Source of the DNA: Minisyncoccota bacterium
GTDB taxonomy: Bacteria > Patescibacteriota > Minisyncoccia > Phycocordibacterales > GWA1-40-21
Direction: 5' to 3'
NCBI GenBank assembly: GCA_041656855.1
Contig: JBBACS010000003.1
Coordinates: forward strand, 4,902 to 68,901
DNA: 64,000 nt
Shown here: positions 44,342 through 49,660 of the stretch, piece by piece
Layout: each line of letters starts with the position of its first letter
Numbering within the stretch: position 1 is the stretch's first letter
The notes under the pieces: model-generated
What the model was told of the DNA's origin: nothing
Seen by the model: the letters and a program-made list of their open reading frames with translations, nothing else
The model's database searches: none
Program-made: the position numbers and the translations under genes

Positions 44342-45874
44342 TTAAACCTTATGACTCTTTCTAATCTCCTTTAATTCTTCCTCATTTTCTTCCTCTTTCC
44401 TTTCTTTTCCTTCCTCCCCCATTTCTCTCAATTTTTTTTCTGGAAGCTTTATAAGTTCAATAGCTTTTTTATTTAAATATTCTTCTGTATTTCTTTTTGG
44501 ATCATCCAGAACTTCTTCAAGAAGTGCATGTAAAACGAAACCAATTTTGGGTCCAGGAATTTCGCCTGTTACATCCATAATTTTTTTACCATCAATGTTA
44601 AGCATTCCAACAGAAATCGGGTCTCTCATAGCTTCATCAAGCATTGCATGATACTTTCTCAGTCTATATGGATCTTCTTTTGGCCTGCCCATTCCTATTC
44701 TATCGCAAGCTCGCAAATCCATAAGATCCCAGACATTATCTTTTCCAACTCTAGCTACAATTCTTCTAACAGCTGATAAACTGATGAGTTCTGTATCAGC
44801 AAAAAACATATGTACTCTAACGAATTTAGTAACTTTTTCTATAACTTTTGCAGGAAATCTCAAATCTTGTAAAATCTTTTCTGTCATTCTCGCACCAATT
44901 ACTTCATGCCCATAAAAAGTTGGCTTTTTCTCCCCCTCTCTTTTAGATTTAGGCTTCCCTATATCATGCAATAGGGCCGCAAGTCGAACTTCTAATGAAA
45001 GTTTTTTATCAGCAGCGTGTTGCAAAGATTTCAGTGAATGTTCCCATACATCATGTATATGTGCACCGCCTTGTTCTATTCCGATAGTTTTTTCTAATTC
45101 CGGAATAATATATTTTAATAAGCCGAATTTCAGACAAGATTTTAGCCCATGTGCCGGCTCACTAGACATAATTATTTTTGTAAATTCATCACGAATTCTT
45201 TCTTTTGCAATGTTTGAAAGTAAATTTGATTCTTCTGCTAATGCTTTTTCAGTTGCGCTATCAATTTCAAAACCGACATAGTTTCCTATTCTTACAGCAC
45301 GCAATATTCTAAGTCCATCTTCTTGAAATCTTTCATGCGGATTTCCTACAGTTTTTAGAACTTTATTTTTTAAATCTTCCTGACCGGAAAATAGGTCAAC
45401 GATTTGTCCTTTATAAAAATCTTTCTTACTTACCACTAGGTCAGCAGACTTTTCGTGACTTCCCTCATCTTCAATACTCAAAGCAATAGCATTTATCGTG
45501 AAATCTCTCCTCTTTAAATCATCTTCAAGCTTATTACTGAAAGTAACCTTGTCTGGCCTTCTATTGTCAGAATATTCAGATTCAAGCCTATATGGGGTCA
45601 CCTCAATCACTTTGAGTGTTTCATCGGAAACCGTTTCGTTTACTACACCTACAGTTCCATAATTGTTTTCATAAAAAGTATCAGGAAATATCTTTATAAT
45701 TTCTTCTGGTTTAGCATTTGTCGTAAGATCCCAATCTTTAGGTTTCACACCAATCAAAATATCACGAACACAACCCCCTATTAAATAGGCCTCAAATCCA
45801 ACACCTTTAAGTTTTTGTGAAACTTCTAGGACTTCCTTTGGAATTGGACCGTATTCTGTGATAGTTTTTTTCAT
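44342..45874 (-). CDS. cca: CCA tRNA nucleotidyltransferase with HD domain
   Basis: YLIGGCVRDILIG, DWDLTT, RRDFTINA, LRILRAVR and LLHDIGKP. Confidence 0.9.
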   Translation of the reverse strand: MKKTITEYGPIPKEVLEVSQKLKGVGFEAYLIGGCVRDILIGVKPKDWDLTTNAKPEEIIKIFPDTFYENNYGTVGVVNETVSDETLKVIEVTPYRLESEYSDNRRPDKVTFSNKLEDDLKRRDFTINAIALSIEDEGSHEKSADLVVSKKDFYKGQIVDLFSGQEDLKNKVLKTVGNPHERFQEDGLRILRAVRIGNYVGFEIDSATEKALAEESNLLSNIAKERIRDEFTKIIMSSEPAHGLKSCLKFGLLKYIIPELEKTIGIEQGGAHIHDVWEHSLKSLQHAADKKLSLEVRLAALLHDIGKPKSKREGEKKPTFYGHEVIGARMTEKILQDLRFPAKVIEKVTKFVRVHMFFADTELISLSAVRRIVARVGKDNVWDLMDLRACDRIGMGRPKEDPYRLRKYHAMLDEAMRDPISVGMLNIDGKKIMDVTGEIPGPKIGFVLHALLEEVLDDPKRNTEEYLNKKAIELIKLPEKKLREMGEEGKERKEEENEEELKEIRKSHKV

Positions 45875-46127: not shown

Positions 46128-46400
46128 ATGGGTTTTCTTATTTCAGTCGCTATCCTTATTGTGAGTTCTCTGATTAGCGGTTTTGCTTTGAAATTGCTTT
46201 GGGGCTGGTTTTTAGTCCCCAATCTCGGACTTCCAGTAATTTCACTCGTACAATCCACAGGAATTGTTCTTATTGTTGAGCTCTTAACTCACAATTACAT
46301 TCCTATGGGAAAAGAGGAGAGGTTGCGGGGAATCATCCACAAAATTGCCGATCCTATAATTATAGTGGCAATTGCATGGGTTCTTCAATTTTTGATGTAA
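46128..46400 (+). CDS. small membrane protein (orphan, strong SD)
   Basis: 90 aa with three TM helices. SD attGGAGGgataaaaaATG, a 15-nt context identical to the gene at 29603. Terminator at 46421-46456. Confidence 0.6.
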   Translation: MGFLISVAILIVSSLISGFALKLLWGWFLVPNLGLPVISLVQSTGIVLIVELLTHNYIPMGKEERLRGIIHKIADPIIIVAIAWVLQFLM

Positions 46401-46510
46401 ACCGTTTTCCAATCATTACAGTCCCGTACAGAATTAAATTCTGTACGGGGCTTTTACTTTATAAAATATTTTCTTTTTTCAATTTTTGTGTATAATACTT
46501 TTAGTTATTT

Positions 46511-46581
46511 GCGAGCGTGGTTTAATGGTAGAACTAGTCCTTGCCAAGGATTGGGTCCGGGTTCGATTCCCGGCGCTCGCA
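46511..46581 (+). tRNA. tRNA-Gly (GCC)
   Basis: gcgagcg acceptor, anticodon arm agtcc-ttGCCaa-ggatt, T-arm ccggg-ttcgatt-cccgg. Confidence 0.9.
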
Positions 46582-46622
46582 CAAATGAAAAATACTCAGG
46601 ATTCTGAGTATTTTTCATTTGT

Positions 46623-46841
46623 GCGAGCGAGTAAGCAAATCTACTTTGCTTACGTCCGGGAATCGAAAACCTTGAGTATATTTTTGAACTTTTACTAAAG
46701 TGAAAAAATACGAAAGGTGTACCGTCCATGTAATGGAAGATAAGCGAAGCGGTCCCGGCGCATTTACCGTAGTAGATTATATTCGGGATAGGGCCTGAAT
46801 ATAATTTTGTAGAAAGTGTACTCACGGTTCCCGTCGCTAGC
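46623..46841 (+). ncRNA. tRNA-cognate minihelix-mimic element, Gly(GCC)-type (type I, with a second partial 3' module)
   Basis: gcgagcg, hairpin gtaagcaaa-tctac-tttgcttac, tccgggaatcgaa, acctt-GA-gta..tac-GA-aaggt, gtaccg-tccaTGTAAtgga, then ggtcccggcgc. A second gtgtactcacggttcccgtcgc module follows. ORFs 46486..46698 and 46505..46843 are spurious. Confidence 0.7.
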
Positions 46842-47186
46842 ATTTTTTAAAACCGTTTCCATAGGTTTTAAAAAATTTTTGAAATATTTTTTCAAAGACA
46901 CTCCCCTTTTTATTATCAGACACACAACAACATAATTTAGTAAAAAAGGAATAATATCTCAAAAACTAGGCCTTTAAATAAGCTCTTTTTTAGGCAAAAC
47001 TGTGGATAACTATGTTCATATGTTAATTAAAGACAGCTTTTTAAGGTCTGATAGAATTACGACTTTTATAGTCCTATATGCAATAAATGGCTATAAATAT
47101 AGCTAATTATAGAAATACGTCCTTAAAACCCTAAATGTCTAATATAAAGTGTTTCTTAGTAACACTTTATATCAGTTTCATGCCTG

Positions 47187-47298
47187 CCCCGTGTGAAATC
47201 CAACACATGACTTTTATATAACTTGGAAAAAATATGTTACACATGAAATCAAATACTAAAATATGGCTTAAATGTTAGGATTTCTTTACGGGGTGAAA
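47187..47298 (+). repeat. 112-nt direct repeat, copy 1 (upstream of yraN)
   Basis: ccccgtgtgaaatcca...gttacacatgaaatcaaatactaaaatatggcttaa...gatttctttacggggtgaaa. Confidence 0.75.
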
Positions 47299-47365
47299 AG
47301 TACAAATTCATGACTTATAAAGATTACACATGAAACACAAAACTATGATAATATGTTAGAAATAC

Positions 47366-47776
47366 ATGAAAAATATAACAGAAAAGCGAAAAACTGGTAA
47401 TCTAGGAGAAGATATTGCATGCAGGTTTCTCATGAAACAAGGCTTTAATGTTATAGAGAGAAACTATTTAAAGAAGTGCGGGGAAATAGATATAGTAGCT
47501 AAAAATAAGAACAAACTACATTTCATTGAGGTGAAATCTGTTTCATACGAAACAGTATCAAGTGTTTCGGGTGAAACATCTAAAGATGGGGAATTCAGAC
47601 CGGAAGACAATGTCCATCCATGGAAGCTACAACGCCTAGCAAAGACAGTACAAATTTATCTAACAGAGAAAGATGTTCCACATGAAACAAATTGGCAGTT
47701 TGACGTAATTACAGTATACATTGATAAAAAACGACTCGTTTCAAAGGTTTCTATACTAGAAAATGTAGTTTTGTAG
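47366..47776 (+). CDS. yraN: YraN-family (UPF0102) endonuclease-like protein
   Basis: GNLGEDIACRFLMKQGFNVIERNYLKKCGEIDIVAKNKNKLHFIEVKS, with an extra segment (VSYETVSSVSGETSKDGEFRPED) before the C-terminal helix. Confidence 0.8.
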   Translation: MKNITEKRKTGNLGEDIACRFLMKQGFNVIERNYLKKCGEIDIVAKNKNKLHFIEVKSVSYETVSSVSGETSKDGEFRPEDNVHPWKLQRLAKTVQIYLTEKDVPHETNWQFDVITVYIDKKRLVSKVSILENVVL

Positions 47777-47800
47777 CCATATTTTTATGTTTCACATTTA

Positions 47801-47907
47801 CCCCGTGTGAAATCCAGTTTAAGCTATACAAGCACTAATATATTGTGTTACACATGAAACCAGATGCTAAAATATGGCTAACAATAAGATTTCTTTACGG
47901 GGCGAAA
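47801..47907 (+). repeat. 107-nt direct repeat, copy 2 (downstream of yraN)
   Basis: ccccgtgtgaaatcca...gttacacatgaaaccagatgctaaaatatggctaa...gatttctttacggggcgaaa. Confidence 0.75.
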
Positions 47908-47920
47908 CATCTAGATTTTC

Positions 47921-47990
47921 AATATCCCACAAGGGGATACAGAAAAAATATAGTCGCTTTGCTCCTTATTTTTCAATAATAAAACCGCTC
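47921..47990 (+). repeat. 67-nt repeat (copy 2) with palindrome TATCCCACAAGGGGATA
   Basis: Matches 27997-28063. Confidence 0.7.
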
Positions 47991-48392
47991 CAAAACATTC
48001 TGAGCGAATAGTTTGGAACGGTTGCGAAAGAGATAATCTCGTAGTCCATTATTATCCCTATTTTACCTTTTTATCTTAAAATATAAAAATGTGATAATTT
48101 TGGGAAAGAAAGTAATAATGAATAACCAAATTAACCTTTCATTGTGAAGATTAGCTAGATCTTCTTAAAGAACAAATATATTGAAGTGTAAGGAGGATAA
48201 ATAAAGCGAGTTGCATCACTATATTTATCTAACACAACAAAATATAACCTAACAATATTATATGTCCTATAGAAATTATGTAAAGGACATCAACTGTTGA
48301 TAACTTGACAATGATATTTAATTCTAAAAGACATTAAAAATATGGCTAATAATAAAGATAGAATGGATATTTGACTAAGATTGAATTGGTGA

Positions 48393-49157
48393 TTATTTCA
48401 ATTCAAGCAAAATAGGGCAGTGGTCACTTCCAAAAATATTATCCAAAATTTCTGCCTTTTTAATTTTTTCTTTCAAATTTTCTGAAACAAAAAAGTAATC
48501 AATTCTCCAGCCAATATTTCTATCTCTTGCAAAAGTTTTCATGTCCCACCAACTGTATTGTATTTTTCCAGGATGCAAACTGCGAAATGTATCAATATAT
48601 CCATGAGAAATTACTTTATCTATCCATCCTCTTTCTATGGACAAGAAACCCGTATTTTTTTCATTTTCTTTTGGCCGAGAAAGGTCGATCTCCATATGAG
48701 CAGTGTTTACATCACCGCAAAAAACAACATCTTTGCCATTCTTTTTTAATTTATCAACAAATTTTAAAAATTCATCGTAATATTCCATCTTAAAATCAAG
48801 TCTTTCTTGTCCGCCACCGCCATTTGGAAAATAAACATTCAAAAGCACGAAGTCCTTATAATAAGCCACCAAAGTGCGTCCTTCATTATCAAATTTTAGT
48901 ATCCCAATGCCATATTCTACCTTTTCAGGCTTAACTTTTGAGAAAATAGCCACTCCGCTATAACCTTTCTTAAGTTTTGAGTGATCAAAATAAGAATGAT
49001 AACCGAGAGGGGAGCGGACTTCTTCAGGAAGTTGTTCAGGGTGAGCTTTTGTTTCTTGCAAACAAATAATATCAGGGTCAGCTTCAAAAATAGTACCAAA
49101 AGCACCTTTTTTATGAATAGCCCTTAATCCATTTACGTTCCAAGACAATATCCTCAT
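48393..49157 (-). CDS. xth: exodeoxyribonuclease III (AP endonuclease)
   Basis: MRILSWNVNGLRA, DIICLQETK, NVYFPNGG, GDVNTAH, WWDMK and GSDHCPI. Confidence 0.95.
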   Translation of the reverse strand: MRILSWNVNGLRAIHKKGAFGTIFEADPDIICLQETKAHPEQLPEEVRSPLGYHSYFDHSKLKKGYSGVAIFSKVKPEKVEYGIGILKFDNEGRTLVAYYKDFVLLNVYFPNGGGGQERLDFKMEYYDEFLKFVDKLKKNGKDVVFCGDVNTAHMEIDLSRPKENEKNTGFLSIERGWIDKVISHGYIDTFRSLHPGKIQYSWWDMKTFARDRNIGWRIDYFFVSENLKEKIKKAEILDNIFGSDHCPILLELK

Positions 49158-49309
49158 ATACGCAATTATATCATAATAGGGAATATGTTATAATATGTGT
49201 ATACTTGTCCCGTGCAAAATTCAATCTACACAAAAAACACACTATAAACGGGGAAGTATATTAAAAGTTTAGATAGTCGATTTTATCAATAATTAAATTT
49301 TTTTACGGG

Positions 49310-49660
49310 ATGAAAAAATTAATAACAATTTTGTCAGCATTTTTATTACCAGCTGTGTCTTTGGCACAAAATTATAGTTTTAGAATGATGAATGATGGAT
49401 TCAGTTCTGGCAATTCAATATTAAGTATATTTTTAATATTGTTAATTCCTTTGATATGGATTTGTTTTGTTGTTTTTGTTTTTGCATTTTGGATAGTAAT
49501 GCTTATAGATGCCATTAAAAATTCTCCGGAAAAAGAGAAGATTGTTTGGGTTCTTGTAATTATTTTTACACATATTATAGGTGCACTTGTGTATTATTTT
49601 GTAGAAAAAAGACCTAAAACAAAGGTCCATCATGCTGAACATAAGGAAGAAAATAAATAG
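49310..49660 (+). CDS. PLD-nuclease N-terminal (PLDc_N) domain membrane protein
   Basis: Signal-like N-terminus, then FWIVMLIDAIKNSPEKEKIVWVLVIIFTHIIGALVYYFVEKRP. Confidence 0.7.
   Translation: MKKLITILSAFLLPAVSLAQNYSFRMMNDGFSSGNSILSIFLILLIPLIWICFVVFVFAFWIVMLIDAIKNSPEKEKIVWVLVIIFTHIIGALVYYFVEKRPKTKVHHAEHKEENK

Follow-up and report, generated by a model that had tools for sequence, protein, structure and literature searches.

The yraN gene of an uncultured member of the Minisyncoccota lies between two direct repeats of about 105 bp and carries palindromes within its own codons, which raises the question of whether gene, repeats and palindromes form a single unit. The stretch analyzed, hereafter the window, comprises 64,000 nucleotides (C3:4902–68901; GenBank contig JBBACS010000003.1) of a 677-kb genome with 41 contigs and a G+C content of 33% (GCA_041656855.1). 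The original prediction had seen here either a gene cassette framed by repeats or a dense array of GAAAC/GTTTC half-sites for a DNA-binding protein. Our analysis indicates that two independent features probably overlap at this locus: copies of a mobile element family, which we named R1, and a cluster of parS sites. R1 is, as judged from its sequence, a non-coding element of about 105 bp with hairpin ends; it belongs to the MITE (miniature inverted-repeat transposable element) type and is restricted to this genus. Each of the two components represents a variant of something already known (a MITE and parS, respectively), with unusual features for which no description was found in the literature searched. 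In the following, G000 denotes the genome of the window ("own genome"), G001 and higher numbers its relatives, and L numbers the loci fetched from relatives.

The two repeats at yraN

Both direct repeats are present at the flanks of yraN, as predicted. Their first 16 nt are identical, identity is 91% in both a 34-nt internal block and the last 23 nt, and the left centre shows no relationship over about 30 nt. The ends described for the repeats are real, but their limits had to be corrected to 47187–47293 and 47801–47902, instead of extending to 47298 and 47907; the TGAAA and CGAAA that follow ACGGGG are host parS half-sites and lie outside the repeat. The CCCCGT and ACGGGG ends are inverted and pair with each other. 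The resulting fold, which consists of CCCCGUG paired with UACGGGG, a small internal loop, and GAAAUCC paired with GGAUUUC, lies 3–4 standard deviations below dinucleotide shuffles on either strand (z -3 to -4).

yraN was found in 22 of 26 genomes of the genus, with one copy per genome, and the gene order around it is conserved in relatives. A comparison of this locus between species shows that the repeats are absent around yraN in all relatives: the model search found no R1 within 1.5 kb of the gene in any of 20 relatives, the exception being a weak pair of a diverged sister element 3' of yraN in G015. The sister elements of G015 (L035 2217–2434) stand in tandem beside the downstream parS sites, reading CCCCAATATCATTTT...AAAATGATACGGGG and then CCCCGTAAGAC...ACTGGGG, and their left junction (...TTTCA-TTTA-CCCC) is the same as that of copy 2 in the window.

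Upstream of yraN, removal of CCTG and the core of copy 1 joins GTTTCATG to TGAAAA and yields the palindrome GTTTCATGTGAAAA, which is identical in G021 and has one difference in G001 and G005; the same palindrome, GTTTCATGTGAAA(T/A), is found 5' of yraN in loci L030, L032 and L037. Without copy 1, the spacing to the conserved hairpin and promoter region matches that of G022 and G002. Downstream, six relatives read ...TAGCCATATTTnTATGTTTCA TG CGAAACAT, with the uninterrupted site ATGTTTCATGCGAAACAT, and the own genome reads ...ATGTTTCAC ATTTA (CCCCGTG...ACGGGG) CGAAACAT. The R1-free loci of the relatives, together with the palindromes restored by excision, thus place each copy at the dyad of a pre-existing palindrome, immediately 5' of its right half, (G)TGAAAC or CGAAAC. 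Both copies are separate insertions specific to this species, and yraN was not made mobile by them.

A model in which copy 1 represents two half-elements around an ancestral parS was ruled out by the canonical family length, by the interior that is common to copy 2, and by the excision product, which is identical to the palindrome of relatives. L002, L007, L011 and L013 were also compared with the own genome for filled and empty sites, and these loci are too rearranged to be read.

The R1 family and its candidate parents

A loose search for the two ends in the own genome returned 12 units of 100–107 nt on eight contigs. An R1 covariance model detected 16–18 copies in this genome (12 clear and 4–6 weaker ones), including a third copy in the window. 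Of 25 genomes of the genus searched with the same model, 17 contain R1, with 1–26 copies each (0–26 over all genomes), and R1 was absent from 16 other families of the order. Many copies in G002 and G022 have identical scores and flanks, most insertions being common to both, so that the copy counts within the genus cannot be treated as independent.

R1 is 99–110 bp long, and its ends form a 6+1+6-bp inverted repeat (CCCCGTG.GAAWTY and RAWTTC..TACGGGG). Among the 12 own copies, the 13-bp terminal helix shows compensatory changes at 5 of 13 pairs and no broken pair; its variants comprise CCCCGTG with TACGGGG, CCCCGCG with TGCGGGG, CCACGTG with TACGTGG, and TCCCGTG with TACGGGA. In 84 distinct sequences of the genus, 98.2% of the helix cells are paired, and double changes occur at 8 of the 13 pairs. 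The observed level of covariation was reached by 0 of 500 shuffles, and no slid register comes close. Tandem copies are joined by exactly CYTG. R1 thus shares with MITEs a short, non-coding sequence, terminal inverted repeats, dispersed copies, and presence or absence at orthologous sites; filled and empty states differ upstream and downstream of yraN, at an aminoacyl-tRNA synthetase (aaRS)-like gene, and at C1:43150.

Eighty further R1 copies were fetched with their flanks, and the 96 distinct elements divide into 29 of type A and 67 of type B. Type A elements have the ends TCCCGTGTGAAATTC...AAAATTTCTTTACGGGA, and the next bases are TG in 27 of 29, which gives a start codon (ATG in 24, GTG in 3) at the element boundary. 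The corresponding frame is open across the 13 flanking codons in 28 of 29 copies, compared with 1 and 12 in the control frames, and the downstream proteins are mutually unrelated. TGAAA follows the element in 16 of the 29 copies; among the long open reading frames (ORFs) of the genome, 16% have ATG-AAA. CYTG precedes every type A copy, with an A before it in 26 of 29; in 26 of 29, likewise, the base before CYTG equals the last base of the element, and a duplication of 1 nt is possible. The degenerate third copy of the window belongs to this type: its final base coincides with the A in the start codon ATG of an ORF at 49310..49660 that encodes a PLDc_N membrane protein (Pfam), the flank reading ...TTTACGGGA followed by TGAAAAAA. 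An empty site is available at C1:43150 of the own genome, where ...TTTTTATT runs directly into ATGGAACC, and the filled site of G004 reads ...ATTATTA-CTTG-element...TTTACGGGA followed by TGGAACC. This junction looks like an insertion between the A and the TG of a start codon with the ATG rebuilt, and type A would accordingly be a form that inserts so that its last base restores the A of the host ATG.

Type B elements have the ends CCCCGTGTGAATTTTCAC...AAAATTCTTTACGGGG and the opposite orientation to type A. Their other strand carries a TATAAT-like box, an ATG 15–20 nt further on, and about 14 codons that read M-x-x-x-K-x-S-E-N-S-H-G-A-(S/R/G). The internal ATG and its codons are in frame with the host protein in 55 of 65 cases, and the hosts include UvrA, HisS, a sensor kinase, a TruB-like protein and an FAD oxidoreductase. 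Type B may thus provide a -10-like box, an ATG and the 14 codons as a fusion to the host protein. At the aaRS-like gene, the empty site of the own genome starts with MQDKFLKPYNPQETE (MQDKFLKPYN), and the filled genes of G003, G006, G012 and G002 start with MSKEEQSENSHVAS-KFLKPYN. Removal of CTTG and the core restores a sequence of the same length at this site, which has a second CTTG 3' of the element. Removal of CYTG and the core restores the relatives' sequence without duplication at two sites. On the strand antisense to the host gene, G.T mismatches of type B outnumber A.C mismatches by 23 to 6, a count that ignores shared descent and hints at a DNA-strand-specific hairpin.

At C4:32049–32152, an R1 copy at the start of a gene whose product begins with MILTPHAI gives an upstream ORF, MSKLKLSENSHVASCIIQ, the stop codon of which overlaps the host ATG (ATGA). 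In G010 (L047), the start of the same gene holds a full-length element encoding a GIY-YIG nuclease, so that this start is a recurrent target of both kinds of element.

The profile PF01541 identifies about eight small GIY-YIG frames (71–126 amino acids) in the own genome and 0–9 in relatives. These frames lie in units of 280–320 bp with inverted ends, several types of which are R1-like, and the 3' end of the units abuts the host ATG as in R1. Three such elements are included in Table 1; further ends read ATCCCGTACGAAATA...TATTTCGTACGGGA followed by TGA. Genomes with more small GIY-YIG ORFs also tend to contain more R1 copies (Spearman 0.65, p 4e-4, n 25). R1 copies lack an ORF of about 90 amino acids for a GIY-YIG nuclease between their arms and could therefore only be non-autonomous derivatives. 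We propose that R1 is moved in trans by the nuclease of about 90 amino acids that the similar-ended 280–320-bp elements of the same genomes encode, and that this enzyme would act on the hairpin formed by the R1 ends in single-stranded DNA. Alignment of the ends is not decisive for the orientation of R1 relative to the full-length elements; type B in forward orientation at the 5' end and type A in forward orientation at the 3' end score best.

Two further observations concern GIY-YIG genes. In G015, G022, G017 and G010, small GIY-YIG genes have TGTCATTCCCGCGnAGGCGGGAATCC on both flanks (L049, L054, L191, L198, L199, L203 and L205), a sequence that differs little from the NTS/SRM motif known from the Ssn system of Neisseria. 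In addition, the 782-aa frame of uvrB (C4:19651–21999) includes, in frame, a GIY-YIG domain (PF01541, 63 bits) with conserved segments of UvrB on either side; this also occurs at G004:C54:18818–19021. The arrangement gives the impression that the protein has taken up a nuclease minigene.

A parS-like cluster in and around yraN

The palindromes predicted in the coding sequence of yraN at 47538–47555 and 47564–47577 are found as described, and a third is located at 47425–47438 (GTTTCTCATGAAAC). The additional cacatgaaac copies at 47328 and 47677 are real and constitute parts of parS-like 16-mers (47322–47337 and 47674–47689). The protein does contain the suspected insertion relative to typical YraN proteins: residues 14–117 match PF02021 (UPF0102) with 104 amino acids on an 80-position profile, and the extra residues account for the difference in length.

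Exact GTTTC-N4-GAAAC palindromes occur six times in the 677-kb genome (about one expected per spacing), three of them in yraN and one in cca. Sites within three mismatches of TGTTTCACGTGAAACA number eight genome-wide, five of which lie at 47424–47861. The frequency of the GAAAC half-site is above expectation. In 18 relatives, the sites recur upstream of the gene (-40 to -170), at +59, +174, +198 and +309, and just past the stop codon, with a variable N4; those of G019 and G023 read GTTTCACGTGAAAT. Across 26 genomes, nearly all sites with at most two mismatches are at the yraN locus, with two stray single sites, and a reversed-pattern control gives 0–2 sites per genome. A single parS-like cluster is present in each of 23 genomes. 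Sites are retained in G020, whose yraN has decayed to a pseudogene with many stop codons, and likewise in G011 and G013, two genomes without a detected yraN. Within the V-S-x-E-T motifs, valine is encoded by GTT in 42 of 42 cases (41% elsewhere in the same genes), serine by TCN in 44 of 44 (61% elsewhere in the same genes) and glutamate by GAA in 44 of 46. The use of two reading frames, the sites outside the gene, the codon bias and the persistence without an intact yraN together argue for selection on the DNA. At the level of the order, 23 of 30 yraN loci (29 from other genera and the own one) contain at least two parS-like sites, with one control hit in total.

The canonical parS consensus is tGTTNCACGTGAAACa (PMC7022226). 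The sites of the own genome have 2–3 mismatches to it, all in the central 4 nt or at the outermost bases, and those of relatives have 1–2 mismatches at the same positions. dnaA lies 28–80 kb from the cluster in six well-assembled relatives (0.6–0.8 Mb), and is on another contig in the own genome. The own genome encodes one ParB (PF02195, 98 bits; a 342-aa open frame at C2:36839). The predicted array of half-sites for a DNA-binding protein is therefore supported by the match to parS, the single cluster, the conservation at the DNA level, the proximity to dnaA and the one ParB, which is likely the protein that reads the palindromes. No link between parS and yraN was found in the literature searched. 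We suggest that the palindromes would be an origin-proximal parS cluster, serving as ParB loading sites, that is embedded in the codons of yraN and maintained by selection at the DNA level. The two R1 copies would then have landed at the dyads of two parS palindromes near yraN. The right half of parS (R/TGAAAC; the slash marks the point of insertion) resembles the preferred target A/TGAAA, which may explain the landing of R1 at these positions, as far as two events allow.

Independent support is thus obtained for a parS array in yraN codons across an order, and the cluster marks the likely ParB/SMC loading region of uncultured organisms. At this locus, a selfish element would have inserted into the dyads of centromere sites, and the genome concerned, of 0.7 Mb, has only one parS cluster.

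Table 1. Coordinates and properties of the features discussed. Positions refer to the window unless a contig is named; a point in the strand column denotes a feature without an assigned strand.
Feature	Position	Strand	Properties
yraN (UPF0102 / PD-(D/E)xK-like)	47366..47776	+	411 nt, 136 aa; PF02021 E 1.2e-20; about 24 extra residues with V-S-x-E-T motifs
R1 copy 1	47183..47293	+	CCTG extension (47183–47186) and 107-nt core CCCCGTGTGAAATCC...GGATTTCTTTACGGGG; covariance model 79.1 bits
Interior block of copy 1	47235..47268	+	parS-like 16-mer TGTTACACATGAAATC plus CTAAAATATGGCT
R1 copy 2	47796..47902	+	variant ATTTA extension (47796–47800) and 102-nt core; covariance model 78.6 bits
Interior block of copy 2, matching that of copy 1	47846–47879	+	parS-like 16-mer followed by CTAAAATATGGCT
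R1 copy 3, degenerate, type A	49208..49310 (C3:54109–54211)	+	covariance model 45.5 bits
Upstream parS-like palindrome split by copy 1	47175..47299	.	halves GTTTCATG (47175–47182) and TGAAAA (47294–47299)
parS-like GATTACACATGAAACA	47322..47352	+	overlaps -35 of yraN promoter-like site ATTACA-18-GATAAT; consensus match only
parS-like GGTTTCTCATGAAACA	47424..47439	.	in coding sequence, other reading frame, encodes RFLMKQ; +59 in relatives
parS-like TGTTTCATACGAAACA	47539..47554	.	in coding sequence, encodes VSYET; +174 in relatives
parS-like TGTTTCGGGTGAAACA	47563..47578	.	in coding sequence, encodes VSGET; +198 in relatives
parS-like TGTTCCACATGAAACA	47674..47689	.	in coding sequence, encodes VPHET; 14/16 vs TGTTTCACGTGAAACA; +309 in relatives
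Downstream parS-like palindrome split by copy 2	47789..47910	.	halves GTTTCA(C) (47789–47795) and CGAAACAT (47903–47910); +417 to +423 in relatives
Outlying palindrome GTTTCATCGGAAAC	45618..45631	.	in cca, encodes VSDET on minus strand; in relatives 1.1–1.5 kb upstream of yraN
Full-length GIY-YIG element	own C3:73233		ends TCCCGTAGTAGAATTTTGAC...GTCAAAATTTCACTACAGGA, followed by TGAAAAG
Full-length GIY-YIG element	own C3:1686		ends CCCGGTAGTGAATTTTCAAC...CTACTACCGGG
Full-length GIY-YIG element	own C19:2386		arms related to R1

Rival readings, known systems and neighbouring features

Several observations weigh against the combination of a GIY-YIG-mobilized R1 and a parS cluster. None of the 50 GIY-YIG loci of the genus has R1 ends within two mismatches, so that these units stand as candidate parents; the nearest full-length ends, CCCGGTAGTGAATTTTCAAC, compare with CCCCGTGTGAATTTTCAC of R1 at about 17 of 20 bases with one indel. 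Seven R1 copies are present in G005, a genome without a small GIY-YIG ORF, and G008 and G015 have small GIY-YIG ORFs and no R1. No target-site duplication can be defined, the CYTG extension leaves the R1 boundaries ambiguous, and every comparison of filled and empty sites is between species. The parS sites of the own genome deviate from the consensus at 2–3 central positions, and simple insertion does not account for the parS-like interior that both yraN copies carry.

Two other readings of the repeats have to be considered. The arrangement of repeat, yraN and repeat was taken in the original prediction as a possible gene cassette, that is, a composite transposon or integron-like unit that moves a YraN nuclease gene. 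Two direct copies with matching ends do bracket a gene of a nuclease family, and a tyrosine-recombinase-like ORF is located 2 kb from yraN. However, yraN keeps its syntenic place in 20 relatives that lack the repeats, is present as a single gene per genome even where R1 is lacking altogether (G008, G015, G019 and G023), and R1 resides at about 16 unrelated places. A search for a longer R1-bounded element in the own genome returned the two yraN copies themselves as the sole end pair spaced wider than one element, and the R1 ends have no attC-type GTTRRRY cores. The absence of the repeats around yraN in all relatives removes the cassette reading, which we regard as extremely improbable. A different view would treat R1 copies as structured RNAs (5' leaders, thermosensors or small RNAs) with a helix that regulates the next gene, spread by duplication. 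The strong helix covariation, which includes G-U intermediates, is what such RNAs would show, as are folds more stable than shuffles and type A ends placed exactly at the start codon, with the helix against the initiation site. An RNA role is difficult to reconcile, however, with copy numbers of 0 to 26 between species of one genus, with orthologous sites whose state, filled or empty, differs between species, and with occurrence in both orientations relative to genes, type B being translated through. Moreover, the downstream genes have no common function, the two yraN copies are away from any start codon, the internal -10-like boxes would start transcripts downstream of the 5' arm, and the excess of G.T over A.C in type B (23 to 6) is on the strand antisense to the host gene. 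Rfam 15 gave no match to R1: across the whole window, only tRNAs reached the gathering threshold, and nothing credible appeared at 46400–48400 up to E 10. Regulatory RNAs are thus an improbable explanation, and the repeats around yraN should be annotated as copies of a mobile element instead of a cassette or a regulatory RNA.

For the palindromes, the alternative is that they are operators of another regulator, substrates of YraN, or RNA hairpins in the yraN transcript. The central 4 nt, ACGT in canonical parS, vary freely in this species, and the sites track yraN across the order, which leaves room for a link to YraN function. Against this, relatives carry near-perfect parS at the same positions, the sites extend to both sides of the gene and over two reading frames, and they are kept where yraN is a pseudogene or undetected (G020, G011 and G013). 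They also form the only parS-like cluster in each genome, are origin-proximal, and coexist with a ParB gene; we consider a reader other than ParB unlikely. A related proposal is that the two yraN copies of R1 have been domesticated, their interior parS-like 16-mers replacing or adding to the split ParB sites. A parS-like interior is found in just these 2 of 96 distinct R1 elements, and it is identical at 18–19 of 20 positions to the upstream parS of G022 and G002. The interior sites, however, are 3–4 mismatches from the consensus, the two copies are from one species, which precludes a conservation test, and capture or gene conversion from neighbouring host DNA gives the same pattern without selection. 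The interior also resembles, in inverted orientation, the conserved stop region of yraN. Domestication therefore seems quite doubtful; for the origin of the interiors, both capture or gene conversion from the host region and a compensating role for the split sites are possible.

Within the preferred interpretation of an R1 mobile element overlapping a parS cluster, a broader proposal can be put forward tentatively. R1 and its 280–320-bp GIY-YIG relatives may constitute an undescribed class of bacterial mobile elements whose hairpin ends home to R/TG, with R/TGAAA preferred, and rebuild the start codon. From type B, dozens of housekeeping proteins would receive a promoter, an ATG and a fixed leader of 14 residues (M..K.SENSHGAS). 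The parS half-sites (GTGAAAC) would be accidental decoys, the partition sites being eroded by insertion and perhaps rebuilt via captured interiors.

Bacterial MITEs that lie at gene starts and carry promoters include Correia/NEMIS of Neisseria, RUP and ERIC (PMC10969869). Like them, R1 is short and non-coding, has terminal inverted repeats that fold as a hairpin, occurs in many dispersed copies mostly just 5' of genes, differs in presence between related genomes, and contains sigma-70-like -10 boxes in its interior. By contrast, no TA-type target duplication or DDE transposase partner was found for R1, and the start-codon junction of type A is exact to the base. The full-length relatives of R1 encode a GIY-YIG nuclease, a parent type that is unmentioned in the MITE review (PMC10969869). 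Rickettsia palindromic elements are similar in that palindromic repeats are translated in frame within unrelated housekeeping proteins (PMC10969869). They reside inside genes, however, whereas type B occupies the extreme N-terminus and gives the start codon and a fixed leader (M..K.SENSHGAS), and they have no sequence relationship to R1.

In dozens of genes of the genus (uvrA, hisS, an aaRS gene, a truB-like gene and others), the start codon and the N-terminus appear to be element-derived, and automatic gene calling will misplace such starts unless the family is known. R1 is a well-resolved case, with base-exact junctions and empty sites, of a seemingly widespread family of start-codon-targeting elements in candidate phyla radiation bacteria; this family was not found in the literature searched. 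The IS200/IS605-derived PATEs and the REPIN/RAYT systems likewise comprise non-autonomous repeats with hairpin ends, which depend for their movement on a small single-domain nuclease acting in trans. These resemble R1 in inserting without obvious duplication beside a fixed short motif (CYTG in R1). The enzyme family associated with R1 is GIY-YIG; no Y1/HUH transposase was seen here, and no search was aimed at one.

Ssn GIY-YIG nucleases cut single-stranded DNA at flanking hairpin repeats (NTS/SRM; Chenal et al. 2025, PMC11893778), and the authors noted the likeness of the repeat-gene-repeat layout to insertion sequences (PMC11893778). The common features are a small GIY-YIG gene flanked by hairpin repeats that are also scattered in the genome, and true NTS-like flanks (TGTCATTCCCGCGnAGGCGGGAATCC) in relatives of this genus. 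Unlike R1, a 105-bp unit with ends that pair over a 70-nt interior, NTS are self-contained hairpins of about 30 nt; start-codon targeting is not described for them, and Ssn was proposed to limit transformation, not to move DNA (PMC11893778). The palindromes at yraN share with chromosomal parS/ParB (Spo0J; PMC7022226) the arms and the 16-bp length of the palindrome, the clustering of a few copies near the origin, some of them in coding sequence, and one ParB gene. The differences are that four to seven sites occur here in or around one 411-nt gene at a spacing of about 115 nt, that they are encoded as a repeated V-S-x-E-T in a YraN insertion, and that the central four bases are free in this species.

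In the window, yraN is preceded by a tRNA gene (46511–46581) and about 780 nt without a called gene, and is followed by about 620 nt without a called gene and by an exonuclease III-like gene on the minus strand (48393–49157). The upstream region contains about 300 nt of conserved non-coding DNA (46866–47180), which ends in a conserved hairpin, AAAGTGTTTCTTAGTAACACTTT (47147–47169). One perfect DnaA box, TGTGGATAA, is found at 47001, plus a few boxes with one mismatch. The label oriC was not adopted for this region: DnaA boxes are no more frequent here than in the rest of the genome, and dnaA itself is carried by a different contig.

The motif AAATATGGCT occurs 15 times in exact form genome-wide, and six of these copies lie within 5 kb here (46028, 47259, 47870 and 48338 on the plus strand; 47784 and 50916 on the minus strand). 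One copy overlaps the stop codon of yraN beside a parS half-site, an arrangement that is kept in relatives. The geneless segment of about 450 nt 3' of yraN (47935–48390) is 70–87% conserved over the genus. Its minus strand has a strong promoter-like site (TTTACA-16-TATAAT, 48284 to 48257) and a hairpin with a T-run (about 48025 to 47985), and could thus encode a candidate unannotated RNA of roughly 250 nt, for which Rfam has no match.

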